Of a DNA stretch of 64,000 bases, positions 13,911 to 53,494 are shown piece by piece. A program made the position numbers and the translations under genes. The number at the start of each line of letters is the position of its first letter. Within the stretch, counting starts at the first letter, position 1. The notes below the pieces were generated by a model. It was not told the origin of the DNA, did no database searches, and saw nothing but the letters and a program-made list of their open reading frames with translations. Origin of the DNA: Myxococcales bacterium (GTDB lineage Bacteria; Myxococcota_A; UBA9042); NCBI GenBank assembly GCA_037441385.1, contig JBBISH010000014.1, forward strand, positions 410 through 64,409, read 5' to 3'.

Positions 13911-16127
13911 ATGGTTTCGCTTGGGTCGGCTCGCTCCAAAGTTGCGATATTGGCAGGATCTTTGGCGGCGTTGGTGTTGGGTGCACCCGCACAGGCCGCG
14001 GTCCCCGCCACAGTGAACCTGGAAGGCGTGGTCACCTCGGCCGGGGGCGGCGCGGCGGCCGACGGCACCTACGGGGCCGCGTTCGCGTTGTACAGCCAAG
14101 CGACGGGCGGCACCGCCGTTTGGAGCGAGGCGAACGTACAGATCACGGTGAAGTCGGGCGCGTTCAGCTACGTGCTGGGCAGCAAGACGCCGCTGGCCCC
14201 CGCCACCTTGGCCACCGCGGGCGATCTGTACCTGGGCATGGCCGTGGGCACCGACCCCGAGCTGCCGCGCATGCCGCTGCGTTCGGTAGCCTATGCGCTG
14301 GTGGCCGACACGGCCCTAAAGGCCACCGGTCTGGAGTGCTCGGGCTGCATCAAGGCGGCGGCGCTGGACAGCGCGGTGCTGCAACCCTATGCCAAGTCGT
14401 CGGATCTTGGGGTCTACGCCAAGGCGGCCGACCTCGGCGCCTATGCCAAATCCACGGATCTGAGCGCCTATGCCAAGTCGACGGACCTGGCCGCCTACGC
14501 CAAGGCGGCGGATTTGGTGGGGCTGGCCAGCAAGACCGACCTGGCCGACTACGCCAAGGCAGCTTCGCTGGCCACGGTCGCGGGCACCGGCAAGTACACA
14601 GACTTGGTGGGTCTGCCCGCCCTGGCCAAGCTCGGCACCAGCTGCGGCACCGGCCTGGTGGTCAAGGGGCTGAAGGCCGACGGCTCGCTGGACTGCGCCA
14701 GCCCGTTCGACGCGGCCGCGGCTGACACCTTGGCCAAGCTGAGCCAGGGCCTGCTCACCAACAATTTCACAGAGGTCGTGCCCAGCGCCGCGCCATTCGA
14801 TGTCAAGGACAACGATCCCACCGGCTCGTCCAACGGCCTGATCAACGTGCCCGACCTGGGCCTGGCCACCAGCCTGACCATCACCGTCAACCTGACCAGC
14901 AAGGACGCGTCGGGCCTGATCGTGCGGCTTTACGACCCCGCCAACACCGAGTACGTCCTCTACGACAAGTCGGCGACGGGCACCACCCTGAAGCTGGTGT
15001 CGCCCAGCCCCAACAAGCCGGTGACGGGCGACCTGACCACTTGGATCGGCAAGAACCCCAAGGGCAACTGGCAGTTGGCAGTGGCCGACACCAAGGCCAA
15101 CGGCGGCGGGATCGACGGCCAGGTCACCAACTGGTCGATCAGCATGGGCGTATGGTCTGACAAGAAGGTGGCGGTGAACGGCAACTTGGTGCTGACGGCG
15201 AACACGCAAGTCTGCAATACCTGGCAGAAAGGCGCGATGCGCTGGAACGCCGGCGTGGGCCGGCCCGAATTCTGCGACGGCACCGTGTGGAACGTGTTCG
15301 CACCCGCGCCGCTGGGCTCGCCCACCCGCCCGGCCGCCAGCTGCAAGGCCATTTTGGACGGCGGCGACAGCCGCGGCGACGGCAAGTACTGGGTGCAACC
15401 GGACGCCGCGGCACCGTCGTTCGAGACGTATTGCGACATGACCACCGACGGCGGCGGCTGGACCATGGTCATGAGTCTGGTCCAAGGCGAATACAAGCTG
15501 GGCGGCGACGACTGGAACCAGAAGTGGCAGCAAAGCGGCTACAACCGCTGGGCCGACAAGTCGACCTTTGGCGACCTGGACAACGCCAGCCGCTACAGCA
15601 TCGGCGACTACAAGAACGCGGCCTACGCCAGCCTGAAGGGCAGCGACATGCTCTTCTACCACGTGCCCGACGGGACCGGCATCGACCAATGGCGAGCCAG
15701 CTCGGTCTACACCTACCACACGAACACGGGATTCCTCACCAGCAAGGGCCCGACTGTTCAAGGGATCTTTGCCACCAGCTGCCCGCTGAACAACGGCGGC
15801 GGCAACCACCAGTGCTTGGTGGTCCCCATTGTCTACGACGTGGGCAACGCGACCAACTACGGCAACGAGCAATGCCCCAACAACCGCGGCGAAAGCGAGC
15901 GCGGCTACGTGACCTTTGGCGCCTGGAACGGCGAGAGCTACGCCTTTGCCTTCTGCCCCGTCAAGCAAAACGGCGCCAACTGCGAGCACAGTTGCGTGGG
16001 CGGCAACGGCACCACCGGCGGCAACGGCGCGGGCGGTTGGGGCAACATGCGCGAGTGGTACTACGACGGCAACTGGTGCATGTCGACCAAGATGCGCACG
16101 GCTGCCCTCATGATGCTGGTTCGGTAG
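13911..16127 (+). CDS. Modular secreted tail-fibre-like protein: conserved N-terminal domain, 9-aa YAKxxDLxx repeat stalk, proprotein-convertase P-domain-like module, C-terminal fibrinogen-related domain (FReD)
   Basis: There is a strong Shine-Dalgarno sequence (AGGAGG) before the ATG, and a signal peptide MVSLGSARSKVAILAGSLAALVLGAPAQA. The P-domain pattern is VNLTSKDASGLIVRLYDPANTEYVL...GNWQLAVADTKANGGGIDGQVTNWSI. The FReD hallmark SCKAIL...GKYWVQPD...FETYCDMTTDGGGWTMV is present. Confidence 0.7.
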   Translation: MVSLGSARSKVAILAGSLAALVLGAPAQAAVPATVNLEGVVTSAGGGAAADGTYGAAFALYSQATGGTAVWSEANVQITVKSGAFSYVLGSKTPLAPATLATAGDLYLGMAVGTDPELPRMPLRSVAYALVADTALKATGLECSGCIKAAALDSAVLQPYAKSSDLGVYAKAADLGAYAKSTDLSAYAKSTDLAAYAKAADLVGLASKTDLADYAKAASLATVAGTGKYTDLVGLPALAKLGTSCGTGLVVKGLKADGSLDCASPFDAAAADTLAKLSQGLLTNNFTEVVPSAAPFDVKDNDPTGSSNGLINVPDLGLATSLTITVNLTSKDASGLIVRLYDPANTEYVLYDKSATGTTLKLVSPSPNKPVTGDLTTWIGKNPKGNWQLAVADTKANGGGIDGQVTNWSISMGVWSDKKVAVNGNLVLTANTQVCNTWQKGAMRWNAGVGRPEFCDGTVWNVFAPAPLGSPTRPAASCKAILDGGDSRGDGKYWVQPDAAAPSFETYCDMTTDGGGWTMVMSLVQGEYKLGGDDWNQKWQQSGYNRWADKSTFGDLDNASRYSIGDYKNAAYASLKGSDMLFYHVPDGTGIDQWRASSVYTYHTNTGFLTSKGPTVQGIFATSCPLNNGGGNHQCLVVPIVYDVGNATNYGNEQCPNNRGESERGYVTFGAWNGESYAFAFCPVKQNGANCEHSCVGGNGTTGGNGAGGWGNMREWYYDGNWCMSTKMRTAALMMLVR
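14388..14595 (+). repeat. 27-bp coding tandem repeats (5 YAK(S/A)xDLxx units plus degenerate units)
   Basis: The encoded stretch is YAKSSDLGV YAKAADLGA YAKSTDLSA YAKSTDLAA YAKAADLVG LASKTDLAD YAKAASLAT. Confidence 0.7.
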
Positions 16128-33782: not shown

Positions 33783-33810
33783 TGACATAACACAAGGTTG
33801 ACGCTTGTCG
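33783..33810 (+). promoter_or_regulatory. Instance 2 (degenerate) of the 23-bp motif: TGACAtaACACAAGGtTGaCgCT-TGTCG, in a very AT-rich patch (TAATATATTC) ending 24 nt before the CHAT-gene ATG
   Basis: The spacing CACAAGG-N8-TGTC is shared with the other instances. Confidence 0.4.
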
Positions 33811-33833
33811 CGCGCCGGCGCACGCTTGGCGAC

Positions 33834-36800
33834 ATGAGCGCGCGCCTGGGGCTGATTTGGGCTGGTATCGCGGTCGCGCTGGCCGAGCCAGCCGTCGCGG
33901 CGCCGATGCGCGGCATGGTCACCTGCAATGGCCAGCCGGCCTACCACGCGATGGTGCAAGGTTTTGCCGATGCCGACGCGACGGCGCCGCTGGGCGAGGC
34001 CTTCACGGACGCCAAAGGGCAGTTCAGCCTGACGCTCAAGCCGGGTGCAACCGTGTTGCGTGCGCGCCGCAGTGTGCGCGACGACACCGGTGAGCCGCGC
34101 CGCCTGCAGAGCCTGGCCGTGCCCATCGGCAGCAAGACGCCGGTGGTGGCGCTGGTCGAGCGCGAGGTGCGCAACCGCGACGTGCCGGCGACTCCAGGCG
34201 ATCTGCAATGGTGCACGCGGGCGCGGCCGGTCGCGGAGCAGAGTCAAATCGAAGGCGTGGTGGCCAGGCTCGCTGGCATGGCGAGCGACGGCTGGGCTGG
34301 CGAAGTCGAAGGCAACGCCGCGATGCTGAAGCGCTACGATGCGGAGCCGGTGGGCCACGTCTTGGACGAGCGGCTCAAGGCGGCCGAACTGCGCCACGAT
34401 CTGGACGAACTGACGCGCATGGCGGCGCTCACGACGGTGGTGGGGCTGGTCATCGACGAACCAGAGCTGCAGGCGGCTGGCCAGGCTTGGCAGGCCATCG
34501 TCGACTTGTACCGCGGCAAACAGGCAGACGCGCTGCAGAAATTCTGGACGGTGCTGGTGCTGCAGCAAAAGGCAGTCGATCGCGAGACCCGGCCGGGCTG
34601 GCGCAAGGGTCGGCTGGCAACCTTGGCCCTGTTCTACGAATTCGCCGGGAACCTCGCGGGCGCAATCCACGATGGGGCCACGGTGGGGCTCTTCGGCGAG
34701 GCCGCCAAGTTCTACGAAGAGGTGGATCAGCCGCGGGACGCCGCGAAATTGCACCAACAATTGGGCTTCACTGCCAGCTTGGCGGGGGACGCGGCCAAAG
34801 CGGTCCAGTCCTACGCCGCGGCGCTGCGGGTCCTGGGCGACCTGCCCGAGCCTCTTCTGCGGGCGCGAATCCAAGGCCGCTGGGCGCAATTGGCAAAAGG
34901 CGACGAGCAGTTGCGCTTGCTGCGCGCGGCCGAGATCGAGCTGGCCAAGGCCCGACCGGGGCTGGAGTCGGCGGGAATTCAAATCGACCTGGGCAAAGCG
35001 TGGAGCGGGCGCGACGACTACCAAACGGCGCTGGTCTTGCTCGACGCAGCTGTCAAGACTTTAGACGGGCTGCCGGCAAGTCCGCTGCGGCGCGTGCAGC
35101 AGTGGTCGGCGCTGGGCGCCAGCGGCCGCGGCTACGTGCATTTCAACTTGCGGCATTTGCCCCAAGCGGCGGCGGATTTGCGGCGGGCCATCCCGTTGCA
35201 GCCCGACTCGCTGCCGCCCCAGGATTGCGCCGCCGAGCAGCAGATGTTGGGCTACGTGCTCGCCGAGCAGGGCCAGCAGCCTGATGCGCGCGCCGCCTTT
35301 GAACTGGGCATCACGCTGGCGCAAAAGGGGACCGCCGAGCGCGATCGCGACCGCGAGCTGCTCTTGCGCGAACAGGTGGCCTGGACGTGGCTGGACAGCG
35401 AGCCGCCAGAACCGGCCAAGGCCCTGCAAGTACTGGACGAGGCGATTCAAAAGGCCAACCGCCAGGGACTGACCGCCCGCGAGGGGCGCTTGTGCGAGAC
35501 GGCCGCCCACGCCGCCAGCCCCGAGGCAACCGCGCCCGCCGCGCAGCGCAAGCGCACGCTGACCTACCTGGAGCGCGCCGAGTCCTGCTACGACCAGACC
35601 AAGGACGCCGAGGGGTTGGCGCGGGTGCGCCGCCACTTGGCACAAGAGCGCCGCCTGATGGCCTTTGCCGAGCAGCAGAGCGGCAGGCGCGCCGATGCCG
35701 AGACCTCGCTGCGTGCGGCCCTGGCTGAGTTCGAGCGCAGCGGTGCCCGCGCGGATGCACAAGAAGCGGCGGACCAACTGGCGCTTTTGCTCTACGAACA
35801 GCGGCGGTGGCTGGAGGCGGCCGCCCTGTGGCAAAAGCACGCGGACTGGCTGGCGACCCCGGAGGCCGAGCAAGCGGCAGCCGATACCGTGGCGAACCTG
35901 CCGCGGCCATCGGCCGAGACCAAGCGCAACCTGACCCCCGGTGCCCGCCGCGCAGTGACGCTGAGCCTGCTGGCCAGTTGCTACACGGCGGCCGGCGAAG
36001 CCGACCAAGCGCTGGCCGTACGCCAGCAAGAGGCCGGGCTACGCAGCCAACAGGGTGACGTGCCCGGCGCGAGCGGTGCTTGGCAGCAGCTGGCGCTGGA
36101 TGCGGCCGTGGCGGGTCGTCGGCCGCTGTTCGACAAGGCGCTGCGTTTCCTGGTGGATCACGCCAGCGACGCCTCGAGCAAAGCGATGGTGGCGGCGCTC
36201 CGCATCCTGCCCGACGTTCTGGGCAGCGACCTGGAGGCAGCGCGCCGGGCCAAGGACGAACTGGCCAACGAACTGGCGGCCTTGTCGGTGGGCGCGGCGG
36301 ATCTGCCCGAGCGCCAAGGTCTGGTGCAAGGTTGGGCCATGCTGGGTTCGCTGCAGGCGCGCCTGGGCGAGCCGGGGCCGGGGCTGGCGTCGCTGCAGAA
36401 GGCGGCCGACTGGTCCGACGCGGCCGGCAAGGCGGCCATGCTCAGCAAGATCGGCCACCTGTGTCGCATGCTGGGGCGCTTGCAGGAAGCCCTGGACGCC
36501 CAGCAAAAGGTGCTGGAGCTGGCCGACCAAGCCGCGATGTATGTCAAGCCTTCGTACTTGCTGACCACGCTGGCCGACGTGTTCGAGGTGTACCAGGCCC
36601 TCGGCAACCGCGACGGTGCCCAGACCGTGCTCAGGCGCGCCCTAGCGGTGGCGCAAGAGGTCGAGGCGCAACCGCGCCAGCAGGCCGACGATCGGAAGAT
36701 TCTTGCCGACTTCCAGGCGATGCTCGCGCTGCGGTCAGTCGTGGCTGGTCACCCCGAGCAGGGGCTGGAGCTGGCCGACCGCGCGCTCGCCGTGTACCCG

Positions 36801-38825
36801 CGGCAGTTCCACGACGAAAACACGGCGACCGCGGCGATGGCGCGAGCGTTGGCCCGCAACCTGGCTTTCTTGAAGGCGTCGACCGCCGCGCTGCGCCAAG
36901 CTACGGCCAACCCGAAGTCGCCTGAATTCGCCAAGGTCGTGGCCGACGTGGAGCGCGGGCAGCGCGAGCACGCCGCGGAATTGCAGTCGGCCATGGAGGC
37001 GGCGCTGGCAGAGCTCGCGGTCACTCCTCTGGCCTTGGGTGCGAGCGCCCTGCAGGGCGTAGCGGGCAGCGACAAGGCCAAGCACAGCGAGGTGCAAAAG
37101 ATTCTTGATCTCGCCCACCAGCGGGCCCTGGCCGGCGGCCGGGTCAGCGACCTGTCGACCCTGTCGTGGCTCGCTGGGCGCAGCGCGGAGGCCATCGGCG
37201 ACCGCCAGGGCGCCATCGTCGCCTACCGGCGCGCCATCGAAGAAGAAGAAGTGGTGCGGACTTCGTTGGCGTCCGACATCCACAAGGCCGCGCTGGGCGA
37301 GAGCCGTGACCAGGTCTACGCCAGCTTGGAGCGCCTGTACGCCCAAGAGGGCCAGGCAGCGGAGGCGCTGGAGGTGAGCGAGCAGCGGCGGGCACGGGCC
37401 CTGCTCGACGTGTTGGCGACCGGACAATTGCGGGGCAAATTGCGCAACAACGCGCCGTCGCGCGAGCTGCAGCAATTGGCCGAGCGGATGCAGGCGCTGG
37501 CGGCCCAGGACCAAGCCTTGGATCTGCAGCTGGGCAGCGGCCCGGTCGCGCGGCTGGACGCCGCCTCGGGCAAGCGCCAGTTGGTCGATACGGCCCGGCC
37601 GCAGCTGCGTGTGCGCGTGGCGGGGCGCGAGGCGGCCGCCGAGGCCCTGTGGCGGCAACTGGCCGAAGCGCGCCGACGCGCCGCGGGTTCATCGGCCGAG
37701 CTGACCTCGCTGGTGACGGCGCCCGCGGTCCAGGTCGACGAACTGCGCAGCATGGCCCGGCAGCGCGGCGCGCATCTGCTCGAGTGGTCCGTGCACGACG
37801 ACACGCTGTGGATCTACGTGGTCAGCCCGGCTGGTCGGGTCGACGGGCGACAAGTCTCGGTCACTGCAAAGGATCTTGAGACCAAGGTGCGGGCGCTCCG
37901 CGGTGCACTGGGCGCAGGCGTGGATCGCGACCTGGGGCGCGGCGGCGAGGCCTTGGGGGCTCCTGAGCCGTCTGGCGGCGACGCGACGGCACTGCTGGCC
38001 GACCTGCACCGCACGCTGATCGCGCCCGTCGCAGACCTGCTCCCCCTGGATGGCAAGACGCCGGTGATCGTGGCGCCCCACCGCTCGCTGCTGCTGCTGC
38101 CGCTGGTCGCGTTGACCGACGCCAAGGGCCAGCCCTGGGGTGCCAGCACGTCGCTAGCGGTGGTGCCGTCGCTGGGTGTGTTGCGCTACACGCAGGCCAA
38201 GCACACCGGGGCGGCCAAGGGCGGCGCGCTGGTCGTTGGCAACCCGCAAATGCCCGTGTGGCAAGGCCAGCCCCTGCCGCCCCTGGCGGGCGCAGAGCGC
38301 GAAGCGGCCGAGGTGGCGCGCACACTGGCTGGCCCAGGAATCGAGTTGCTGACTGGCGCCAAGGCGACCGAGACCAAGGTGCGCAAGTCCATGCAGGGCA
38401 AGCGCTTCCTGCACCTGGCCACCCACGGTGTGGCGCGCGATGACCAGCCGGGCGAGAGCTTTGTGGCCCTGGCCAAAGACGCTGGCGCCGACGGGCTCTT
38501 GACGGTGGGCGAAGTGCTGGATCTGCAATTGCAGGCCGACTTGGTCGTGCTGTCGGCCTGCCAGACCGGGCTGGGTAAAGTGAGTGGCGACGGCGTATTG
38601 GGCCTGGGGCGCGCCTTCCTCTACGCCGGCACGCCGCGCGTGGTCGTGAGCCTGTGGTCCGTGCCCGACGAGCCCACCGCGCTGCTGATGGCCACCTTCT
38701 ACGCCGGGCTCCGTGCCGGTCAGGCCCCGGCCGATGCCCTGCGCGCCGCCCAGTCCACCACGCGCGCCAAGTTCCCAGACCCGCGCGCCTGGGCCGCCTT
38801 CGCGATGGTCGGCGAGCCCCGCTGA
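33834..38825 (+). CDS. Secreted carboxypeptidase-regulatory-like domain + TPR repeats + C-terminal CHAT (caspase-like) protease domain protein
   Basis: The signal is MSARLGLIWAGIAVALAEPAVAA. A CarbopepD_reg-like segment reads GMVTCNGQPA...FSLTLKPG. The long TPR region is followed by the CHAT His/Cys dyad HLATHG...LSACQTG. Confidence 0.75.
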   Translation: MSARLGLIWAGIAVALAEPAVAAPMRGMVTCNGQPAYHAMVQGFADADATAPLGEAFTDAKGQFSLTLKPGATVLRARRSVRDDTGEPRRLQSLAVPIGSKTPVVALVEREVRNRDVPATPGDLQWCTRARPVAEQSQIEGVVARLAGMASDGWAGEVEGNAAMLKRYDAEPVGHVLDERLKAAELRHDLDELTRMAALTTVVGLVIDEPELQAAGQAWQAIVDLYRGKQADALQKFWTVLVLQQKAVDRETRPGWRKGRLATLALFYEFAGNLAGAIHDGATVGLFGEAAKFYEEVDQPRDAAKLHQQLGFTASLAGDAAKAVQSYAAALRVLGDLPEPLLRARIQGRWAQLAKGDEQLRLLRAAEIELAKARPGLESAGIQIDLGKAWSGRDDYQTALVLLDAAVKTLDGLPASPLRRVQQWSALGASGRGYVHFNLRHLPQAAADLRRAIPLQPDSLPPQDCAAEQQMLGYVLAEQGQQPDARAAFELGITLAQKGTAERDRDRELLLREQVAWTWLDSEPPEPAKALQVLDEAIQKANRQGLTAREGRLCETAAHAASPEATAPAAQRKRTLTYLERAESCYDQTKDAEGLARVRRHLAQERRLMAFAEQQSGRRADAETSLRAALAEFERSGARADAQEAADQLALLLYEQRRWLEAAALWQKHADWLATPEAEQAAADTVANLPRPSAETKRNLTPGARRAVTLSLLASCYTAAGEADQALAVRQQEAGLRSQQGDVPGASGAWQQLALDAAVAGRRPLFDKALRFLVDHASDASSKAMVAALRILPDVLGSDLEAARRAKDELANELAALSVGAADLPERQGLVQGWAMLGSLQARLGEPGPGLASLQKAADWSDAAGKAAMLSKIGHLCRMLGRLQEALDAQQKVLELADQAAMYVKPSYLLTTLADVFEVYQALGNRDGAQTVLRRALAVAQEVEAQPRQQADDRKILADFQAMLALRSVVAGHPEQGLELADRALAVYPRQFHDENTATAAMARALARNLAFLKASTAALRQATANPKSPEFAKVVADVERGQREHAAELQSAMEAALAELAVTPLALGASALQGVAGSDKAKHSEVQKILDLAHQRALAGGRVSDLSTLSWLAGRSAEAIGDRQGAIVAYRRAIEEEEVVRTSLASDIHKAALGESRDQVYASLERLYAQEGQAAEALEVSEQRRARALLDVLATGQLRGKLRNNAPSRELQQLAERMQALAAQDQALDLQLGSGPVARLDAASGKRQLVDTARPQLRVRVAGREAAAEALWRQLAEARRRAAGSSAELTSLVTAPAVQVDELRSMARQRGAHLLEWSVHDDTLWIYVVSPAGRVDGRQVSVTAKDLETKVRALRGALGAGVDRDLGRGGEALGAPEPSGGDATALLADLHRTLIAPVADLLPLDGKTPVIVAPHRSLLLLPLVALTDAKGQPWGASTSLAVVPSLGVLRYTQAKHTGAAKGGALVVGNPQMPVWQGQPLPPLAGAEREAAEVARTLAGPGIELLTGAKATETKVRKSMQGKRFLHLATHGVARDDQPGESFVALAKDAGADGLLTVGEVLDLQLQADLVVLSACQTGLGKVSGDGVLGLGRAFLYAGTPRVVVSLWSVPDEPTALLMATFYAGLRAGQAPADALRAAQSTTRAKFPDPRAWAAFAMVGEPR

Positions 38826-38917: not shown

Positions 38918-40768
38918 CTACGGGGCTTCTTCCACCCACAGCGTGGCGTGTGCGGTCTGGCGGCCGTCCGAGGCGTACTGGCCCACGTCTTCCAGGATCA
39001 GGTGGTTCCACCACACCGTGAAGGTGTGCGCTCCGGCCGGGACGTTGGTGGCGATGCACGAGATGGTGTCCGCGCGCACCTCGTCGGTGTTGCCGTAGTA
39101 CTCCGAGCCGCAGCCCCAGGGCGTGGGGATGACCTTGTCGTCCATGCGGACTTCGATGCCGCCCCAACCCCAGCTGCTGTGGGTCTCTAGCGCGCCGGTC
39201 ATGACCTGAATCTTTAGCACCGAGGCGGCCTGCTGCTTGGTCAGGGTCGCCTTCAAGTTGGTGTCCAACTGAGCCCAACCGCCGCCGGCGTTGCCGGTGT
39301 GGGGGCCGGTCACGGTGGCCGTGGCATAGTTGAGCTTCTGCGGGATGGAAACGCCATTTACGGTGCCGTCGACGAGGAGGTCGCCCTTGACCTGCACCTT
39401 CTTGTTCGACAGGGTCTGGATGTTGATCGACCAGTTGAATTTGCCGTCGAACCCGCCCGAGCCGCCGCCGGCAAGCAGGTCCTTGACCGTCACCGACCAC
39501 GCACCGGCGATGTTCTTGCCCACCCAATCCTTGTTGATATCGCCCGAGACGATCGCCATGTCGCTGTTGAAGTTCGCCGTCAGCACCGTGCCGGTCTTGG
39601 AGCCGTCGTACAGCACGTAGGGCGACGGCATGCCGGGACCGTACAGTTCGATGCGCACCTTGGCGACGTTGCTGTTGTTTACCGTCATCGAGATCCAAAC
39701 CTTCTGCGCCAGGCCGATGTCCGGGAAGGACAGGGTGTCGGTCACGCCGGCGGTCAGGCCGTCTTTGATCGCGACATCGGTCGTGCCCGCCTTGCTATCG
39801 ACAAACTGGTTGAAGATCAGGCCATTACTGACCTCGTCGATGCCATCAGCCGGCATATCTTTCTCGCTGAGAATGCCGCACACCAGGCTGCCATCCGCCG
39901 CCAGCCCCTTGACGACCAGCCCGGTGCCGCAGCTTTTGCCCACCTGAGCCAGCACGGGCGCGTCCACCAAGTCGGCGTATTTCCCGGTCGATGCCACCTT
40001 GGCCAACTGCGGCTTGTCGGCCAGATCGTTGTAGCTGCCGGTACCGGCCACCGGCGCCAGCGACGCGGCCTTGACGTAGTCCGACAGGTCACTCTTGGAC
40101 GCCAACCCAACCAAATCCGCGGCTTTCGCATAGGCGGCCAGGTCGGCACTCTTGGCATAGGCGCCCAGGTCCGCCGCCTTGGCATACACACCCAAATCCG
40201 CGGACTTGGCATAGACGCTCAGGTCCGCCGATTTGGCATAGGGGCTCAGGTCTGCGGTCTTGGCATAGGCCGCCAGGTCGGCAGACTTGGCATAGGCCGC
40301 CAGATCCGAAGTCTTGGCAAAGGGTTGCAGCACGCCACCTTCGAGCATCGCCGCGGTGATGCAGCCCGAGCACTCCAGCCCTTCGGCCACCACGGCGCGC
40401 TGCGCGTACAACACCGACGCCAACGGCTGCCGCGGCAGCTCGGGATCCGAACCAATCTGCACGCCGATCCAGGCCTTGCTCAAGCTCAGGCTCGCGGGTA
40501 CGAGTGGAGTCTTCGTGCCCAAGTTCCAAAGGAACAAGCCGCCTTGCACGTCGACGCTGACGGGCCCTTCGCTCCAGACCGCCGAACCACCGGCCTCCGC
40601 CGCATAGATGGCAAAGGTCACGTTGTAGCTGCCGTCCGAGACGGTCCCCCCGGCCTGCGACGTCAACCGGCCCTGGGTGATGGTGGTGGGCGGCACAGCG
40701 GCCTGGGCGGTCGCCGCGCCACACAGGGCGAGCAGACTGAACAGCAAAGTCGATAGGCGCAGATTCAT
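38918..40768 (-). CDS. Paralog of the 13911-16127 modular tail-fibre-like secreted protein: same N-domain, 8 YAKxxDLxx repeats, P-domain-like module, different (non-FReD) beta-rich C-terminal domain
   Basis: The signal is MNLRLSTLLFSLLALCGAATAQA. The N-domain is about 60% identical to the paralog, including the shared LECSGCI motif. The C-terminal ~200 aa are unrelated to FReD. Confidence 0.7.
   Translation of the reverse strand: MNLRLSTLLFSLLALCGAATAQAAVPPTTITQGRLTSQAGGTVSDGSYNVTFAIYAAEAGGSAVWSEGPVSVDVQGGLFLWNLGTKTPLVPASLSLSKAWIGVQIGSDPELPRQPLASVLYAQRAVVAEGLECSGCITAAMLEGGVLQPFAKTSDLAAYAKSADLAAYAKTADLSPYAKSADLSVYAKSADLGVYAKAADLGAYAKSADLAAYAKAADLVGLASKSDLSDYVKAASLAPVAGTGSYNDLADKPQLAKVASTGKYADLVDAPVLAQVGKSCGTGLVVKGLAADGSLVCGILSEKDMPADGIDEVSNGLIFNQFVDSKAGTTDVAIKDGLTAGVTDTLSFPDIGLAQKVWISMTVNNSNVAKVRIELYGPGMPSPYVLYDGSKTGTVLTANFNSDMAIVSGDINKDWVGKNIAGAWSVTVKDLLAGGGSGGFDGKFNWSINIQTLSNKKVQVKGDLLVDGTVNGVSIPQKLNYATATVTGPHTGNAGGGWAQLDTNLKATLTKQQAASVLKIQVMTGALETHSSWGWGGIEVRMDDKVIPTPWGCGSEYYGNTDEVRADTISCIATNVPAGAHTFTVWWNHLILEDVGQYASDGRQTAHATLWVEEAP
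40033..40321 (-). repeat. 27-bp coding tandem repeats (8 YAKxADLxx units plus degenerate units)
   Basis: The encoded stretch runs FAKTSDLAA YAKSADLAA YAKTADLSP YAKSADLSV YAKSADLGV YAKAADLGA YAKSADLAA YAKAADLVG and onward. Confidence 0.7.
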
Positions 40769-40994
40769 GGTGGGCTCCCGGCGGGGACGAAAGGGCACGC
40801 ACATCCAAAGGACGATGCAGGCTGCGGAACGGTTGGACAGACCCGTCGCGGGCCGCCCCGCCGACCCCGCGCCGCACGCAAATAGGGTACGTCTGGCGCC
40901 AGAGGTGGTCAAACCCCATGAAACCACAACATTACGTTTACCTGACAAGTTTGCCACAGCTCTGTAGCTACGCGAGACGCCGCGAGGGCGATGA

Positions 40995-41047: not shown

Positions 41048-41140
41048 CGTACTTTTTGCTGTGCGAGCTCTTTTTGGCTGTGCGAGCTCTTCTTGGCTGT
41101 GCGAGCTCTTCTTGGCTGTGCGAGCTCTTTTTGGCTGTGC
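41048..41140. repeat. 19-bp tandem repeat GGCTGTGCGAGCTCTTYTT x ~4.5 (each unit has a GAGCTC palindrome) in the 3' UTR of the tail-tube gene, ~280-370 bp upstream of the paralog gene
   Basis: Direct reading gives four near-identical units followed by a degenerate unit. Confidence 0.7.
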
Positions 41141-41231
41141 GTGCTTGTCAGCTTGTGGCTGTTGCCTCTTGAGCTACGGCGAGCCTTCGACCCGCGCGTC
41201 GTGCCCCGTCTGGATCACAGCCGCGTCAAGA

Positions 41232-41663
41232 TCAACCGCGCTCCAGCTTCTCAACGGCCAGCTCGAGCTCTTCGACGTTGACGTCGGTGCCCTTGCCGTC
41301 CAGGGTGAAGCCCTTCCACTTGGTCGGCCAGCCCTCGAAGAAGTTGTAGCGCATGATCTCCGAGCCGTCGTCGGCGCAGAGGATGACCGAGCCCGACTTG
41401 CGCTGCACCTTGCCCTCGACGACGGCCTTGCGCCATTCCCAGAGCTCAGTGTTGTTGATGTAGCCGCGCTTGAAGGTGATGTTGCTGTACTTGGTGCGGC
41501 CCGGGCGCTTACGCAGCACCATATCGTCGCCGTCCTGGTACTCGATGATCTCGGTCTCGCTGTCCAGGCCTTCCACGTTGCGGAAAGCACCCTGGGTGAC
41601 GCCTTCGATCTCGATCTTGAAGTTGAAGTTACCGATGTGGTCGAATGCACGACGGTTAGGCAT
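41232..41663 (-). CDS. Phage tail tube protein of the T4 gp19 / eCIS Afp1-Pvc1 type (PF06841-like), stand-alone
   Basis: The sequence FNFKIEIEGV...FRNVEGLDSETEIIEYQDGDD...KRPGRTKYSNITFKRGY...ELWEW matches the conserved phage-tail-region-protein signature. No sheath or baseplate genes lie nearby. Confidence 0.7.
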   Translation of the reverse strand: MPNRRAFDHIGNFNFKIEIEGVTQGAFRNVEGLDSETEIIEYQDGDDMVLRKRPGRTKYSNITFKRGYINNTELWEWRKAVVEGKVQRKSGSVILCADDGSEIMRYNFFEGWPTKWKGFTLDGKGTDVNVEELELAVEKLERG

Positions 41664-42061: not shown

Positions 42062-43018
42062 TCAGAATCCTTCGGGCAGTCCGCCTGGCGCGGCCGGGTC
42101 GCTTGGTTCGGCGGTCGACGTGCCGGTCGCAGGCCGTTCAGCGGGCGCGGCAGGCCGCAATTCGGGCTGATCTTGCAGGGGATCGCGCCAGCGCGGCCGT
42201 TCGGTGGCATAGAACGCCGCGCCCTTGCTGCGCCCCAGCGACCGCACGTAGTGCACCAAAGCCCAACGATCCGCAACCAACGGAATGGACTGATCATACG
42301 ACGGCATGGGCGAGCCATCCAGGCCGGTGACGAAGGTGCGGTAGACGTCGAGCGGGCGCATGCCGCCCTTGTAGACGCCGTAGGTAAAGTCAAAGACGTG
42401 ACTGGGGGTGCCGTCGCTGTTTTTCGCGGTCGTTGCCGCCAGACCGTCGCCGCGCCCGTCAGCGCCGTGGCACTCGCCGCACTTGAGCTGGGTGTAGAGC
42501 TGGCGACCGCGCTCGATACTAGCTGGCGTTTCAGCGACTTCGGTAACATCAGCTGGCACGAGCAGGTCGTCGACCTGGCGCGGCTCGGCGGCAAAACGCG
42601 GCGACAGCGTCTCTAGGAACAGGACTAGCGAAAGGAGCTGCCGGTCGGTCAGCTGCTCTTGCCAGCCCGGCATCGCGCTGCCCGGCAGGCCCAGGGCCAG
42701 GCTGCGGAGCAAATCGGCGCGCAGCGGGAGGGCGCCGCTGGTGGTGGAGCGAAAGCGGTACTCGCCGCGGGTGAGGTCGCGCGGCCGCGGGAAAAGGTGC
42801 TCTGCCACTGGGGATTTGCCGTCTCCCCTGGGCCCGTGGCAGCCGCTGCACAGGGCGCTGAACAATTGCCGGCCCTCTGCCGGGGTGGCCGGCGGTTCGG
42901 CAGCGCTTTCTGCTGGCGCAGGGCTGGGTTGCACGCCCGCGCCGCCACAGGCCCCCAGCGCGATGGCGAGCAGGGCGGAGGCGGTGCAGGCCGCGCGAAG
43001 TTGGCTAAAGGAAGCCAT
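42062..43018 (-). CDS. Dihaem c-type cytochrome lipoprotein (cytochrome c4/Cyc1-like)
   Basis: The signal is MASFSQLRAACTASALLAIALGAC. It has two CXXCH motifs, CSGCHGPRG and CGECHGADG. Its start overlaps the upstream gene end by 14 nt. Confidence 0.7.
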   Translation of the reverse strand: MASFSQLRAACTASALLAIALGACGGAGVQPSPAPAESAAEPPATPAEGRQLFSALCSGCHGPRGDGKSPVAEHLFPRPRDLTRGEYRFRSTTSGALPLRADLLRSLALGLPGSAMPGWQEQLTDRQLLSLVLFLETLSPRFAAEPRQVDDLLVPADVTEVAETPASIERGRQLYTQLKCGECHGADGRGDGLAATTAKNSDGTPSHVFDFTYGVYKGGMRPLDVYRTFVTGLDGSPMPSYDQSIPLVADRWALVHYVRSLGRSKGAAFYATERPRWRDPLQDQPELRPAAPAERPATGTSTAEPSDPAAPGGLPEGF

Positions 43019-44126
43019 GGAGTTGCACCAGCAGTTCGTCGGCGTTGCCCGCCGGCCGTTGGGGGATGTCGCGGTTCTTCCGGTACTCCAAGCGAATTTC
43101 GGAGAACTGCAGCGGGAACCAGCCCAGACCGACCACAAAGCGGTCGCGCTCGTTGTTGGCGATCTGCCGCGAAGGGTCAAAGGCTTCGAACCGGCCACGC
43201 AAGTGCAGGCCGCGCCAGAGCTCGAAATCGCCTTCGGTAAAGAGCGAATACTGGTCGTAGATCTCGGGATTGCCGATGCCGCGAATCCAGTCGATCGAGC
43301 CGAGCAGCGTAAGCCGCGCCAGCCGCATCCCACCGTGAAGACCGGCGGTCACGGTTTGGAAGGGGAAGTCGCGGACCGATGTGTCATTCCACGCGGCCGA
43401 GGCGTAGAGGCGCCACCACGAGTCGAATACCCCAACCGTGGCAGTGAGTTGCTTGGCCAAGTTGCCGTCCGCGCCGCCCAAGCTGCCGTTGCTCAGCGAC
43501 AGCGCTGCCGACCAGTGCTTGCCGGTGGCGCCGACCTCGATGCCCAGGTCTTGGTTGGCGTAGTTGAAGCCGGTCTGCTGGCGCATGAACGCGGTGTCGT
43601 CCCAAATCCGCAGGCCGTACGGCAACATGAAGCGCCCGGCCTTGAGGTAGAGCCCGCCCGGCAGCGCGCCGTACAGCAAGAAGGCCTCGCGGGCCGAGGC
43701 GCCTTCGGGGGCGACGACCTCGTCGACGTACACCGAGAGCGCGTCGGGCACGACGTCGGCGCGGAGGTAGAGGTTGCCCTCGCTGATGTCGAAGGAATTC
43801 GAGGCTGGGGTGGAGTACTGCTTGCCCTGGATGGCCGTATGCGCGGGCAGGATGGTTCGGTGATCCAGGCGGAGATTGGCGCCAAAGTGAACCGTTGAGC
43901 CGAGTTGCGGGTCAGCGGCACCGACACTGCGCCAAGTGGGCAAGTGGGTCTGGGCCCAGGCGACGCCAAAGGCCGTGCGCATGCCGCCGCCGGTGCGGTT
44001 GACGTGGCAGTCGCTGCACGGCAGCCCTTCGCGCAAGGCAAAGCGCGGCTCGGCCTGCGCGCCAGTAGACCACAGGGTCACCGCGGCACATACGCACAGG
44101 GCGAGAGCGGCGAGGGCGCGAGCCAT
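43005..44126 (-). CDS. Cyc2-like fused monohaem cytochrome / predicted outer-membrane beta-barrel protein
   Basis: A signal peptide is followed by a single CXXCH (PCSDCH) about 12 residues into the mature protein. Some 320 aa follow with the alternating aromatic/polar pattern typical of a porin. It is TGATG-coupled to the upstream PSCyt gene. Confidence 0.5.
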   Translation of the reverse strand: MARALAALALCVCAAVTLWSTGAQAEPRFALREGLPCSDCHVNRTGGGMRTAFGVAWAQTHLPTWRSVGAADPQLGSTVHFGANLRLDHRTILPAHTAIQGKQYSTPASNSFDISEGNLYLRADVVPDALSVYVDEVVAPEGASAREAFLLYGALPGGLYLKAGRFMLPYGLRIWDDTAFMRQQTGFNYANQDLGIEVGATGKHWSAALSLSNGSLGGADGNLAKQLTATVGVFDSWWRLYASAAWNDTSVRDFPFQTVTAGLHGGMRLARLTLLGSIDWIRGIGNPEIYDQYSLFTEGDFELWRGLHLRGRFEAFDPSRQIANNERDRFVVGLGWFPLQFSEIRLEYRKNRDIPQRPAGNADELLVQLHGFL

Positions 44127-44755
44127 CAGTTTTCGCCTCCAAGATCCGTCGGTTGCAGCATGTCGCCTCCGCCATCCTGCGTGTCCGGGCCGGGTTCGCT
44201 TGGGCCGGGTTCGCTTGGGCCGGGTTCGCTGGGCTCGCCGCCCGCATCGGGCAGGGGCACCGTGAGCACCTCGGCGTCGGCGGGCTCGTCCTTCCAGTCC
44301 GTGGTGGCGCCAGCCGAAATCCAGTGCCGCAGGGATGTGATCTGCGCGCTACTCAAGAAGGGCGGCCCAGTCCTGGGCATCCGCGAACCCACGCGCCGCG
44401 GATCGCTGCCGATCACCTTGGCCATCAGGTAGCTGTCCTCGGGCTTGCCTGGGGCCACCCGCAGCATCGCCGGCACCTCCGACGACGCCACACCGACCAG
44501 CATCTTGTACGCCGAAGCCGTGTCCAGCGCCAACCCCTTGGGCGCCGCGCCGCCGTGATGGCACGGCTGGGCGCAGGTGGGCTCCAGAATCTGCGATTGG
44601 ATCTCGGGCCACGTCTTGGGCCCGGTCGCGCCAGGCTCGGGCGGCGCCGGCACCCCCACGCCGTTGCCCACGCAGCCGGCCATCGCCCAGCCGAGCAGCC
44701 CTTGCATCGCCCAGCGCGAGCGCGACAATACAAGGAGCACCGAGGCCGCCGACAT
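44126..44755 (-). CDS. PSCyt1-type (planctomycete cytochrome c domain) lipoprotein with one CXXCH and C-terminal PSEPG repeats
   Basis: The PSCyt1 pattern is ...ILEPTCAQPCHHGG...GLALD...PGKPEDSYLMAKV...MP...ITSLRHWISAGA. The signal is MSAASVLL...WAMAGC; an alternative start at M17 (44707) is possible. Confidence 0.6.
   Translation of the reverse strand: MSAASVLLVLSRSRWAMQGLLGWAMAGCVGNGVGVPAPPEPGATGPKTWPEIQSQILEPTCAQPCHHGGAAPKGLALDTASAYKMLVGVASSEVPAMLRVAPGKPEDSYLMAKVIGSDPRRVGSRMPRTGPPFLSSAQITSLRHWISAGATTDWKDEPADAEVLTVPLPDAGGEPSEPGPSEPGPSEPGPDTQDGGGDMLQPTDLGGEN
44187..44240 (-). repeat. 18-bp x3 tandem repeat coding (PSEPG)3
   Basis: The plus-strand unit is gggccgggttcgcttg. Confidence 0.6.
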
Positions 44756-44772
44756 GAAGCACCCTTGTGTCA
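44751..44772 (-). promoter_or_regulatory. Instance 3 of the 23-bp motif (minus strand): TGACACAAGGGTGCTTCATGTC, overlapping both divergent start codons
   Basis: This is the reverse complement of gacatgaagcacccttgtgtca. The CATG at 44753-44756 supplies an ATG on each strand. Confidence 0.5.
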
Positions 44773-44966
44773 TCTTACTGATCTTAATGGCGATTGTGGC
44801 AACCAGCTGCGTTACCGTGCAGCCGTGGCAGCGGGGCACGCTGAGCGAGCCGGCGATGGAATTGAAGCCGCGGCTGGGTAGCGAATTCCACAACCACGTG
44901 CGGCAGGTGCGCGAAGCGGCCATCGGCGGCGAGGGCGGCGCGGGCGGCGGCTGCGGCTGCAACTGA
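44754..44966 (+). CDS. DUF4266-family small lipoprotein (71 aa, C-terminal GGCGCN)
   Basis: The sequence is MKHPCVILLILMAIVATSC...VQPWQRGTLSEPAMELKP...GGEGGAGGGCGCN. The 5' codons are AT-rich. It is convergent on the DUF3570 gene. Confidence 0.6.
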   Translation: MKHPCVILLILMAIVATSCVTVQPWQRGTLSEPAMELKPRLGSEFHNHVRQVREAAIGGEGGAGGGCGCN

Positions 44967-44998
44967 TCGACGCGCGGCGGCATCCGGCTCCTGAGGGT

Positions 44999-46108
44999 CT
45001 AAAGATCAACGGACAAGGCAGCTTGGAGGATGCCGGTCCAGGTGTCGGCCATGGGCACAAAGGCGCCGTTGACCAGCGTGCGGAAGTCGTCGTAGCGTTC
45101 CCAGCCCGCCATGGCCTGCAGCACCGCCTCCCAGTTTTGCCAGCGAGTGCGCAAGGTTAGCTGAGTGCTGTCGGCAATCTGACCAACCAGGCGGCGGTCG
45201 CGCGTCATGTACTCGCGCTCTACGGAATACATCGCCCGCTCGAAGCTGGCCCGCGACTGCCAGTAGAAGCGATTGCTCAGCTCGACTTCGACCGCATAGT
45301 GGAACTTGAAGGTGGCGCCCAGCTCGGCCGTGTTGGCGCGGACGCCCCAGGTGTCGACGTAGCCGCGGTAGAAAGCGCGCAAGAACCAACGGTTGCTCAA
45401 GGCCTGGCGGCCCTCGATCGTGACGCCGTGGCGGGTGCGCTGATCGGGATGCTGCTCGGCGACCCACTGCGCGTGGTCTTTGGTCCACAGGTCGACCGTC
45501 TTGGGCACGAGGGGCACCATCCGATAGGGACTGGACTGAAAGCCGTTGATTTGCTGCAGAGTATACGCCAGCGACAGGACCGCAGTGCGGCTGATCAGCT
45601 GGGTGAGGGTGGCGTCGAGCCGGTGACTGGTGCGGTCGTGCCACAGCGCTTCGGGCTCGCGGACGCTGCCCAGCCGGTCCAGGCCCACACCATAGGTCAA
45701 TGATGTAGCCAGGTTGCGCGACAGCCACTCGCGAGTGGCGCCCAGGCTGACGGTGTGACTGCGGGTGTCGTTTTCGGTGCTGTAGGTATAGCCCGCGTGG
45801 CCTGCGAGCCCTTGCTCGTCGTAGACGGCCTGCAACCCCGCTTCTTTGCGGACGTCGTGAAAGCGCGCGCTGGCCCCCGAGATCATGTCCACCGAAGCGG
45901 CCGAAATGAAATCCGTTTTCAGATCGGCTTGGAGCGAGGCGCCGCTCTTGACGCGCTGCCGGGCTTGGACCCACGGCGAGATCACCTGCAGGCCATCGTT
46001 GTTGCGATACACGGCCGTGCCGGTCGCTGCGTGCGCCCCCAGTTCGTCGGCCCGGACCGGCGCCGCCAGGCCAAACAGCGCGCACAGCACGGCCCAATGC
46101 CACGCCAC
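44999..46108 (-). CDS. DUF3570-like predicted outer-membrane beta-barrel protein (GTG start)
   Basis: The signal is (M)AWHWAVLCALFGLAAPVRA. The sequence has alternating Y/W/F beta-strand periodicity. The other minus frame is Arg/Pro junk. Confidence 0.55.
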   Translation of the reverse strand: MAWHWAVLCALFGLAAPVRADELGAHAATGTAVYRNNDGLQVISPWVQARQRVKSGASLQADLKTDFISAASVDMISGASARFHDVRKEAGLQAVYDEQGLAGHAGYTYSTENDTRSHTVSLGATREWLSRNLATSLTYGVGLDRLGSVREPEALWHDRTSHRLDATLTQLISRTAVLSLAYTLQQINGFQSSPYRMVPLVPKTVDLWTKDHAQWVAEQHPDQRTRHGVTIEGRQALSNRWFLRAFYRGYVDTWGVRANTAELGATFKFHYAVEVELSNRFYWQSRASFERAMYSVEREYMTRDRRLVGQIADSTQLTLRTRWQNWEAVLQAMAGWERYDDFRTLVNGAFVPMADTWTGILQAALSVDL

Positions 46109-46140
46109 GCTGGCCCAATGGAGCCCCAGGCGCGGCGCGA

Positions 46141-46670
46141 TCACGGCAGCACCCAGTCGACCCAGTCGGCGAGGAGCTTGTAGTCGGGGTCGTCGCGGCT
46201 GGCGAAGATCTCGAAGCCGCTGCCGTGACGGATGCCACCTTGGTCCAGGGGCAGGCACTTGAGCAAGAGTTTGCAGTTATTCAACGAGGTTACGCCGCGC
46301 AAGCGGTTGCGGATGGCGTCGTAGTTCCACGTGAGCTCGGCCTCGGTCAGGCGCGTCTCGTCCAACGGCGTCTCCGCAAACTCGGGAGGCGCGCGAAGGA
46401 AATCCACGGCGTACAGCTTGAGGCTGCGATGCGGGTCGCCGTGGCAGGCCGACGAAGCACAGCGCCGCCCCAAGACCGGTTGCACGAAGGTGACAAACTG
46501 GCCGTAGTTGGGTTTGGGCGGTACGTAGCGCGGATTGTCTATGGACTCGCACCCGGCGACGGCGAGCAAAACAACACTGATTACAAGAACTTTGGCCAAA
46601 GTGCGCCGCAGGAGCCGCCATGGTCTGGTCCGCCGCGGGGGGCTTGAAAGGGGTTGCAGGTGGCCATTCA
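46141..46670 (-). CDS. PSCyt1-like lipoprotein with degenerate haem motif (CX4CH)
   Basis: The signal is MNGHL...VLLAVAGC. The pattern FVQPVLGRRCASSACHGDP...LLLKCL...DDPDYKLLADW parallels the 44126-44755 protein. Confidence 0.5.
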
Positions 46671-46838
46671 TCTCGGCACGACGCGGCTCTCTTGCGGTTG
46701 CGCGCCCCCCATGCCGTCTGGACACCGACCAGGGCCGCGGGAGGTGGCGATTTGGCGTTTGCGCGACCCCTGCGGGCGGTGGTATCAAGCAAGTGGAGAT
46801 CGGAAGAGCACGCACACCGCCTGATTCGATGCTATGCA

Positions 46839-53413: not shown

Positions 53414-53494
53414 GTTGGCGGGTTGTCCATCGCGCGGCCAAAGTCGATCATGCTCGGGTTGGCAGGGGCAAAGCGTAGGTGGCAAGGGGTGGCG

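Follow-up and report, generated by a model that had tools for sequence, protein, structure and literature searches.

Introduction

How contact-dependent predators, and other bacteria that interact with surfaces, recognise many targets is a largely open question, to which the mosaic adhesive trimer (MAT) fibres of Bdellovibrio bacteriovorus, described in 2024, provided the first molecular answer (Caulton et al., 2024, PMC10769870; NCBIfam NF053851, Bdello_MAT_N). MAT proteins combine a signal peptide, a conserved β-rich N-terminal domain of ~130 residues, a fibre and a set of swapped tips that includes TNF-like and C-type lectin domains (PMC10769870). The concept of a fibre with exchangeable tips has thus already been published for Bdellovibrio, in a study that documented a repertoire of 21 MATs in HD100 and also gave a Myxococcales example (PMC10769870). 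Beyond the MAT papers, we found no literature on the protein family described here in Myxococcota.

Here, we analyse two genes from a 64,000-nucleotide stretch of contig JBBISH010000014.1 from Myxococcales bacterium (assembly GCA_037441385.1), hereafter the window. One of these (the target) and its counterpart 22.8 kb away on the opposite strand (the paralog) are intact paralogs that share one scaffold and end in unrelated tips, and they belong to a large family in which tips vary widely.

Results

An intact pair of paralogs with unrelated tips

The features of the target, together with its paralog and its upstream neighbour, are collected in Table 1. The target product is identical to predicted protein P0001 in a public collection and its start codon is preceded by a Shine-Dalgarno-like GGGAG at 40775–40779. 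Both products carry a signal peptide, a β-sandwich N-domain with a terminal CxxC, 9-aa YAKxxDLxx repeats, an SGSYxDLxxKP motif, a Cys loop and a P-domain. In BLASTP this shared part aligned at E = 2e-104, with 45% of 481 columns identical, and the alignment stops at target residue 478 and paralog residue 440, just past the junction TLSxKK..KGDLxVDG; between the tails there was no significant alignment and no meaningful identity. By region, identity between target and paralog reaches 52% in the N-domain (61/117), 78% in the repeat stalk, 72% across the fibre motif and Cys loop and 35% in the P-domain.

The initial annotation, made from the sequence alone, had described paralogous modular proteins with a common style of signal peptide and a swapped C-terminal domain, placed 23 kb apart on opposite strands, and our alignment bears this out: similarity over ~480 residues ends abruptly in unrelated tails, and the signal peptide falls within the shared part of both products. 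Two of its figures need revision. The N-domains are similar, but less so than the ~60% identity suggested, and the distal segment is indeed unrelated to the fibrinogen-related domain (FReD) of the paralog, but spans 146 residues (471–616) rather than ~200.

Table 1: Coordinates of the target gene, its predicted modules and associated genes in the window.
Feature	Position	Strand	Description
Target gene	38918..40768	(-)	616 aa, intact; ATG start at 40768, stop codon 38918–38920 (ORF list)
Sec-type signal peptide	40700..40768	(-)	aa 1–23, MNLRLSTLLFSLLALCGAATAQA then AVPP; read from sequence
N-terminal β-sandwich domain	40349..40699	(-)	aa 24–140, conserved; ends in invariant CxxC
CxxC (C133, C136)	40361–40372	(-)	end of N-domain
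9-aa repeat stalk	40052..40321	(-)	aa 150–239; 8 F/YAKxxDLxx units + 2 degenerate; 27-bp DNA period
Fibre motifs and Cys loop	39869..40051	(-)	aa 240–300; two phage-tail-fibre-like (S/T)GxYxDLxxxP motifs, then Cys loop C280...C297
Putative P-domain-like β-sandwich module	39404..39868	(-)	aa 301–455; proprotein-convertase P-domain type; aligned to P_proprotein of paralog
Junction	39359..39403	(-)	aa 456–470, SNKKVQVKGDLLVDG; family motif TLSxKK..G.L starts upstream, at ~aa 451–453
C-terminal tip	38921..39358	(-)	aa 471–616; modelled TNF/C1q-like jelly roll; conserved Cys pair C553, C571; proposed ligand-binding head
Paralog	13911..16127	(+)	738 aa, intact; same signal peptide/N-domain/stalk/P-domain scaffold; 5 + 2 repeats; FReD/COLFI-like GGGWT tip
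T4 gp19/CIS-type inner-tube gene	41232–41663	(-)	upstream neighbour; Pfam E 1e-38, TIGR02241 E 4e-33

Signal peptide and N-terminal domain

The structure model of the target starts with a helix at residues 3–15, and the −3/−1 rule would place signal peptide cleavage in an AxA|AVP context that is conserved in the family; an AxA|xVP-like motif lies within the first 70 residues of 99 of the 121 family members. The N-domain that follows is conserved in 117 sequences and is modelled as a β-sandwich (residues ~28–110, pLDDT >90), which we propose acts as a cell-proximal anchor or as a trimer staple.

The Bdellovibrio model NF053851 matched target (16.5 bits, E = 0.0056) and paralog (19.7 bits, E = 5.7e-4) at the same position, both scores being below its 60-bit cut-off. 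When N-domains free of signal peptides were searched, 14 of 38 matched NF053851 (best E = 1e-4), the sole recurring NCBIfam family, as did none of the 38 reversed-sequence controls. A distant family member matched the C-terminal part of the same model. However, NEAT domains were marginally matched by an N-domain profile too (E = 9e-4), so the similarity to MATs could stem from a generic sandwich pattern. A regular-expression search for the capping loop of MATs (V-G-G/N-pi-x-x-P-x-x-x-L) found it in none of the 121 family proteins, and when the N-domain of P0125, the distant member, served as query in a word-indexed search, two fragments came back, with no bridge to named MAT proteins. Together, these results hint weakly at a possible homology between this N-domain and that of MATs.

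An old repeat stalk with phage-tail-fibre-like motifs

The target/paralog alignment contains a gap of 27 residues, or three units, at the stalk, and across the family the number of repeat units ranges from 0 to 16. The counts of eight and five units given in the initial annotation are correct, but its ‘perfect’ YAKxADLxx units are so at the level of the motif only: TRF reported 27-bp arrays at 40128–40323 in the target (7.3 copies, 77% matches) and at 14386–14512 in the paralog (4.7 copies, 74% matches), and the 27-bp units have a mean identity of 63%, a best pair at 89% and no identical pairs. The longest exact word common to the two genes is 22 nt. A comparison of the 27-bp units for traces of recent recombination, as the initial annotation had suggested, was thus negative, and the divergence of the repeat DNA leads us to reject both recent slippage of the repeats and recent conversion between the two genes. 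The description of the pair as ‘cassette-like’ should not be taken to mean an active switching system, as repeats and paralogs are old at the DNA level.

The PHROG family phrog_30808 matched target residues 148–257 (E = 4.5e-15), and residues 229–279 showed 55–59% identity in tblastn to a ‘tail fiber protein’ of Ralstonia phage phiRSL1 and a structural protein of Synechococcus phage S-SZBM1. Alignment columns in the (S/T)GxYxDLxxxP and Cys-loop region are almost invariant across the family. The monomer model of the stalk is of low confidence (pLDDT 53–62).

P-domain module and junction

Pfam P_proprotein (PF01483) matched paralog residues 321–411 (E = 6.7e-7, 29.8 bits against a cut-off of 21) and is precomputed for several homologs; the target itself has zero Pfam matches at E ≤ 1. 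The P-domain-like module reported by the initial annotation is accordingly detected by Pfam in the paralog but not in the target, which aligns there with the paralog and with homologs and so probably has an equivalent module. We know of no precedent for a P-domain within a trimeric fibre.

Beyond it lies the junction, whose motif occurs in 94 of 121 members and in which the target and family member P0008 share 87% identity, despite a core identity of only 46%. As the last shared element ahead of the variable tip, it marks by sequence the module boundary.

Tips of target and paralog

A structure prediction for the distinct C-terminal domain, which the initial annotation had recommended in search of a jelly roll, returned a ten-strand jelly roll that superposes on TNF/C1q heads (model built on 11 sequences, pLDDT 73.5). 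Pfam searches at E ≤ 0.1 and a PDB sequence search gave no match for this tip, which by sequence thus falls outside the Pfam C1q and TNF families; its likeness to C1q/TNF is at the fold level only, as modelled. The tip of the paralog is recognised by sequence, matching NCBIfam NF040941 (GGGWT_bact; E = 2e-16, 59.6 bits against 30), Pfam Fibrinogen_C (32 bits against 22, over the N-terminal quarter of the model only) and COLFI, and it clusters with the tails of 28 other family members. With the target tip alone as query, a word-indexed search returned one fragment and an exhaustive HMMER search only four cluster representatives, so the target-type tip is rare; in the 50% clustering, the target itself evidently falls under a representative that has a different tail.

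A family with many tips on one scaffold

The family comprises at least 389 protein matches and at least 300 loci in species-representative genomes. The best 80 of these loci all fall in 15 uncultured metagenome-assembled genomes (MAGs) labelled Myxococcota, Myxococcales or Deltaproteobacteria, apart from one labelled Proteobacteria and two mislabelled ‘Enterobacteriaceae’; the family is confined to uncultured Myxococcota MAGs, of a freshwater/groundwater lineage. Copies occur in tandem arrays of two to five, and single MAGs hold at least 9–12 copies with six or seven tip types.

Past the conserved core, the tails of 119 homologs form at least 19–21 unrelated clusters. Pfam identified COLFI/Fibrinogen_C, TLDc, phage Collar, ALK_LTK_GRD and DUF4215 tips, with weak matches to Lectin_C and CTHRC1_C. 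The survey of related genomes advised in the initial annotation thus did reveal members with other C-terminal domains (~21 tail clusters, six or seven of the tips within single MAGs).

Similarity of tips and similarity of scaffolds are incongruent. Proteins P0008 and P0011 carry a target-type tip at 68.5% identity on cores that are only 46% identical to that of the target and rank 110–113 of 121, whereas more than 100 proteins with cores nearer to the target bear other tips. The target tip type also occurs in P0122 and P0125, which have the same N-domain, a different stalk and no P-domain. This incongruence indicates that tips have been exchanged, and a tip at 68.5% identity on a 46% core points to module exchange beyond divergence alone. 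The design originally proposed for the pair, a conserved anchor with a variable-length stalk and a swapped distal binding domain, therefore extends to the family, as seen in the span of repeat numbers, the variety of tail clusters and the presence of the target tip on a distant scaffold.

Genomic context

A strong intrinsic terminator separates the upstream tube gene from the target, which has its own transcription unit. The tube gene is missing from the locus of the syntenic ortholog and from all 80 family loci examined, and the target has no further CIS or phage genes as neighbours. With a terminator in between and synteny not kept, a functional link between the target and the CIS tube gene was rejected. 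Among 2.9 million viral contigs in IMG/VR there were no family relatives, and phage genomes yielded short motif matches only.

The 3′ UTR of the tube gene, upstream of the target, contains a 19-nt sequence repeated five times; it recurs neither elsewhere in the window nor at the 80 loci and matches no Rfam family.

Discussion

We consider it reasonably likely that the target is a Sec-exported modular fibre, a MAT-like chimeric surface adhesin that is probably trimeric and has exchangeable heads. In such a fibre, the β-sandwich N-domain that follows the signal peptide would probably sit at the surface of the producer, and the stalk would project outwards through the CxxC, the variable number of 9-aa repeats, the SGSYxDL motifs and the Cys loop. 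A P-domain knob would lie beyond the stalk, followed by the junction and an exchangeable binding head, predicted to be a TNF/C1q-like jelly roll in the target and a fibrinogen-related domain in the paralog. The signal peptide and conserved Cys pairs fit an extracellular setting. Heads of the TNF/C1q-like fold class act as trimers and, in bacteria, as glycan-binding lectins; as such tips are trimeric as a class, the fibre would form trimers too. We likewise infer surface anchoring, glycan binding by the tip and a role in recognition of prey or surfaces. The freshwater/groundwater Myxococcota lineage would keep about ten or more of these genes, bearing many different heads, a repertoire that may have arisen through duplication, often in tandem, plus exchange of head modules at the junction. 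One display scaffold could thereby provide many binding specificities, most plausibly for the surfaces of other cells (prey) or particles.

Several other readings of the target can be weighed against this one. As the stalk is repetitive and Ala-rich, the similarity to the paralog could be a low-complexity artefact, or the target a decaying pseudocopy. However, the globular N-domain and P-domain also align, the reading frame is intact, has no frameshifts and shows coding composition (GC3 = 0.81), and a syntenic ortholog is 75–82% identical across each mature region, from N-domain through tip, which makes either version of this explanation practically negligible. A complete or fragmentary subtilisin-like proprotein convertase is another option, given that a P-domain is present and that several homologs appear at JGI as ‘subtilisin-like proprotein convertase family protein’. 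Yet neither peptidase S8 nor any other catalytic domain was found by Pfam in target or paralog at E ≤ 1, and the database name arises from the P-domain alone; we regard this reading as extremely improbable, and our analysis corrects such misleading names.

The initial annotation had likened the design to phage tail fibres and polymorphic adhesins. As a logic of construction this holds, but the literal phage assignment, in which the target would serve as structural tail fibre in a phage-like particle (a prophage or an extracellular contractile injection system), fails on most counts. The tube protein encoded upstream, the stalk matches to phage tail fibre proteins and phrog_30808 and the phage Collar domain that serves as tip in some members all speak for it. 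Phage and CIS fibres are assembled in the cytoplasm, whereas the target bears a Sec signal peptide; a strong terminator parts it from a tube gene that is missing at the ortholog and the 80 loci, and neither flanking CIS or phage genes nor relatives on viral contigs were found. This assignment is accordingly very unlikely. A real, if unlikely, contender retains the architecture and changes the biology: self or kin recognition, cohesion, attachment to particles or algae, a hair-like nap on cells or spores such as BclA forms on the Bacillus exosporium, or release as soluble lectins of the collectin or ficolin type, prey recognition playing no part. The target shows none of the collagen-like GXY repeats that are the hallmark of BclA-type naps, six or seven unrelated heads per genome fit many foreign targets better than one self-ligand, and the sole weak family signal points to the N-domain of a predator’s MAT.

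If the target is indeed an exported, MAT-like fibre, we would tentatively place the family as a previously undescribed, highly expanded MAT-type branch in freshwater/groundwater Myxococcota, with a stalk of its own (CxxC staple, 9-aa repeats, P-domain knob) and heads that may be the bacterial counterparts of pattern-recognition and matrix heads found in animals (FReD, C1q/TNF-like, COLFI, CTHRC1-like, TLDc, ALK glycine-rich). A MAT-like design with a different stalk, a wider set of heads and a massive expansion in Myxococcota suggests that the principle is widespread. Should these fibres prove to be a repertoire for recognition of prey or other targets, chimeric fibre repertoires would represent a general solution for contact-dependent predators, and the family would offer many new lectin specificities as well as insight into how these head domains originated. 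Dozens of naturally swapped heads on one scaffold are candidates for lectin discovery and for the engineering of retargetable fibres.

Among known systems, phage receptor-binding tail fibres differ in that the target is Sec-exported and its family is scattered on cellular chromosomes, outside phage clusters and on no viral contigs. The nearest known heads to the target tip are bacterial TNF-like lectins and TNF/C1q heads (the Photorhabdus lectin 9ib6, the C-domain of Chlamydia Pgp3 and the C-domains of BclA and F-BclA), although these are only 9–16% identical to it and the stalk here is not collagen-like. With BclA-like exosporium nap glycoproteins, the likeness is confined to the head fold, as the target has no GXY repeats and its stalk has a period of 9 aa. 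Animal ficolins, collectins and C1q likewise place FReD heads (as in the paralog) or C1q/TNF-like heads (as in the target) on an extended oligomeric stalk, and COLFI and CTHRC1-like heads occur in the family; this is a domain-level likeness only, as the family is bacterial and its stalk is unrelated and devoid of collagen repeats.

MAT fibres resemble the family in more respects: a signal peptide followed by a conserved β-rich N-domain without a PDB homolog, a fibre-like middle with phage-tail-fibre-like sequence, a multi-gene repertoire per genome (21 in HD100 against at least 9–12 per MAG here), C-terminal tips swapped on a conserved scaffold, with overlapping tip types (TNF-like, C-type-lectin-like and novel sandwiches), and an N-domain sequence match that is weak yet order-dependent. 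They differ in that the family scores ~17–20 bits against the NF053851 cut-off of 60, builds its stalk from 9-aa YAKxxDLxx repeats, a Cys loop and a P-domain where MATs have β-helix prisms, has an invariant CxxC after the N-domain and neither S74 chaperone/protease nor capping-loop motif, extends its set of tips to FReD/COLFI, TLDc and ALK glycine-rich domains, and resides in Myxococcota rather than Bdellovibrionota.

Architecture of the fibre-like protein and its paralogue

The target product (616 aa) is sequence-identical to a public predicted protein, P0001, and only two copies of its family occur in the window, the other being a paralogue with a FReD/COLFI-like tip. BLASTP aligned the pair at 45% identity over 481 columns (E 2e-104), stopping at target aa 478, beyond which there was no significant alignment. 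As two globular domains, the N-domain and the P-domain, lie among the similar regions (Table), the similarity is not a low-complexity artefact, and the intact target ORF is not a degraded pseudocopy. The initial annotation, which proposed a shared anchor, a variable stalk and a swapped distal domain, is confirmed in its observation and supported in substance in its interpretation: the C-terminal domains are unrelated and its F/YAKxxDLxx counts hold (eight against five, with two further degenerate units per gene), while the N-domains are similar at 52% rather than ~60% identity.

The N-domain was modelled with pLDDT >90 for aa 30–110; its CxxC is invariant in 121/121 relatives. The repeats match phrog_30808, and the SGxYxDL segment shares 55–59% identity with an annotated phage tail fibre protein. 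Pfam gives significant P-domain matches for the paralogue and homologues, and alignment assigns the domain to the target; a protease domain is absent from the target. Judged by their DNA, the repeat units are old: matches within the 27-bp arrays amount to 74–77%, the best pair of units is 89% identical, no two are identical and the longest exact word common to target and paralogue is 22 nt, so the recent recombination considered for them, whether slippage, expansion or gene conversion, did not occur.

Table. Features of the window and of the target protein, with target/paralogue identity by region
Feature	Position	Strand	Identity	Remarks
Paralogue gene	13911-16127	+		738 aa
TPR-CHAT gene	33798-38825	+		1675 aa; between fibre gene and Ser/Thr kinase
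Target gene	38918-40768	-		GGGAG precedes ATG start
Terminator	41044-41009			strong; 15-bp stem and T-run, between tube gene and target
Five tandem 19-nt repeats	41051-41145			AGCTCGCACAGCCAAAAAG; 3′ UTR of tube gene, before terminator
Tube gene	41232-41663	-		upstream; T4 gp19/CIS inner-tube protein (TIGR02241, E 4e-33)
Cytochrome c, multihaem-like and DUF3570 genes	42062-49139			adjoin fibre gene; synteny kept with ortholog locus
GT87-like, GT2 and DUF2064-radical SAM/SPASM fusion genes	50017-55138	+		possibly a cluster for surface glycans or for peptide modification
Sec signal peptide	aa 1-23			AxA|AVP context conserved
Beta-sandwich N-domain	aa 24-140		52%	C-terminal end is CxxC
Stalk, ten 9-aa units	aa 150-239		78%
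Two (S/T)GxYxDLxxxP motifs and Cys loop	aa 240-300		72%
P-domain-like sandwich	aa 301-455		35%
Conserved junction	aa 456-470
Tip	aa 471-616		none

Tip fold and exchange between scaffolds

The tip matched no Pfam family or PDB chain at sequence level. Its structural model shows a jelly-roll head, the fold that had been suggested, here TNF/C1q-like, with the Photorhabdus TNF-like lectin (9ib6; score 11.5) and the Chlamydia Pgp3 TNF-like C-domain (10.9) as nearest neighbours, followed by BclA, F-BclA and ExsFA (about 10), EDA, LIGHT, BAFF, C1q and cerebellin (8–9), cyanophage tail-fibre heads (8.2–8.7) and the Bdellovibrio tip Bd2734 (7.9), from the MAT fibres compared below. Its conserved cysteines, C553 and C571, fit an extracellular protein. 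This exact tip is rare. Five close relatives carry it, as does one fragment, and when 1.84 billion representatives were searched exhaustively, four proteins came back. A tip profile connects it to other family tails (P0004, P0086, P0102, P0013 and P0061), and single-sequence phmmer links it weakly to P0073 and P0070, members of the triple-copy tail cluster typified by P0014.

The syntenic ortholog P0002 is evenly 75–82% identical to the target in every mature region, from N-domain to tip. P0008 and P0011 are 68.5% identical to it in the target-type tip and 87% in the junction but just 46% in the core; their cores rank 110–113 of 121 by similarity to the target core, and more than 100 proteins whose cores are closer bear different tips. 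The target tip type also occurs on P0122 and P0125, which have a homologous N-domain (43–78 bits against an HMM of the family N-domain), a different stalk and no P-domain, so the N-domain superfamily is wider than the P-domain family. Judged from these comparisons, heads move between scaffolds, having been exchanged rather than merely diverged, and the module boundary falls at the conserved junction. P0122 also has a CxGC, the stalks of both proteins are entirely different from the family stalk, and both end in the target-type TNF-like head, present once or three times.

Family size, tip diversity and hosts

A full-length search found at least 389 relatives, most aligning over just the first 72–77% of the query and carrying other C-terminal Pfam domains. 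The proposed survey for such variants was borne out: 119 tails, cut where the conserved core ends, formed 19 BLASTP clusters, or 21 after adding genome loci. These include a FReD/COLFI-like cluster (29 members, among them the window paralogue), three large clusters (two without a credible Pfam match, one with only a weak C-type-lectin-like match) and triple TNF-like, TLDc, phage Collar, ALK/LTK glycine-rich, DUF4215 and weakly CTHRC1-like clusters. Besides FReD/COLFI, several tips (P0080, P0007, P0013 and P0015 types) match domains mostly familiar from animals: ALK/LTK glycine-rich (E 1e-5), TLDc (E 4e-21) and, both weakly, the CTHRC1 C-domain and C-type lectin. Family members have between 0 and 16 repeats.

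Scanning one genome per species gave 300 family loci, of which the best 80 come from 15 uncultured MAGs of lake and groundwater origin; these bear Myxococcota, Myxococcales or Deltaproteobacteria labels, apart from two labelled Enterobacteriaceae. From these 80 alone, single MAGs hold 9–12 copies with 6–7 different tip clusters. Tandem arrays of 2–5 family genes are common. Head-to-tail arrays of 3–5 genes in 8–13 kb (L008 and L077 on JBIKTV010000043.1, L042, L053, L055, L070) show that tandem duplication feeds the repertoire. The two 'uncultured Enterobacteriaceae' MAGs, CAYURO01 and CAYHHL01, hold nine and four loci, respectively (L037, L048, L051, L052, L055, L057, L059, L068, L069, L074, L076, L078, L080); their label looks wrong, since their loci are arranged almost exactly as in the Myxococcales MAG CAJBNH01.

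Genomic context and proposed role

The adjoining tube gene suggested a literal phage-type tail fibre, a reading contradicted by the intervening terminator, the target's signal peptide, synteny and a viral search. The ortholog locus reads DUF3570-x-x-cytochrome c-[fibre]-kinase and lacks the tube gene, which occurs in 0/80 family loci; the remaining genes around the target encode cytochromes, transporters and a kinase, and no relatives were found among 2.9 million viral contigs. The context is non-viral. The fibre would trimerise, because TNF/C1q, FReD/COLFI-type and collar heads belong to an obligate-trimer fold class and the CxxC is a possible inter-chain staple; the N-domain would anchor it, the head would bind glycan, and the protein would have a part in recognising foreign cell surfaces. 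The analyses establish an export signal, modular architecture, the TNF/C1q-like head, repertoire and module exchange; the main rival keeps that architecture and assigns it to self-adhesion, matrix or nap.

The tube gene is an orphan. Its product is found identically on two contigs, and its 90%-identity cluster has 100 members, including Myxococcota MAG sequences; the 19-nt repeat is found nowhere else in the window, nor in the 80 loci, and matches no Rfam family. The TPR-CHAT gene is missing at the same position of the ortholog locus (L001), indicating lineage-specific insertion or loss.

Comparison with Bdellovibrio fibres

The closest described system is Bdellovibrio's superfamily of mosaic adhesive trimers (MAT): 21 genes encoding a signal peptide, a beta-rich N-domain of ~130 aa that is conserved and has no PDB homologue, a trimeric fibre and swapped tips, including TNF-like, C-type-lectin and novel sandwiches (PMC10769870). 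MAT proteins are displayed on the surface, one binds prey glycans, and examples are given for other predators, among them a Myxococcales MAG (PMC10769870). The NCBIfam MAT N-domain model NF053851 was the sole recurring match of mature family N-domains (14/38, best E 1e-4; 0/38 reversed controls), hitting both window paralogues at the equivalent position with about 17–20 bits, far under its 60-bit cut-off. The motif is in part generic, as a marginal NEAT-domain match shows; neither the MAT capping-loop motif (0/121) nor an S74 domain is present here. On this evidence, membership is not demonstrated, and the target is probably a distant MAT relative, described by analogy as working like a MAT fibre. 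The system here is a lineage-specific version of this recently described kind.
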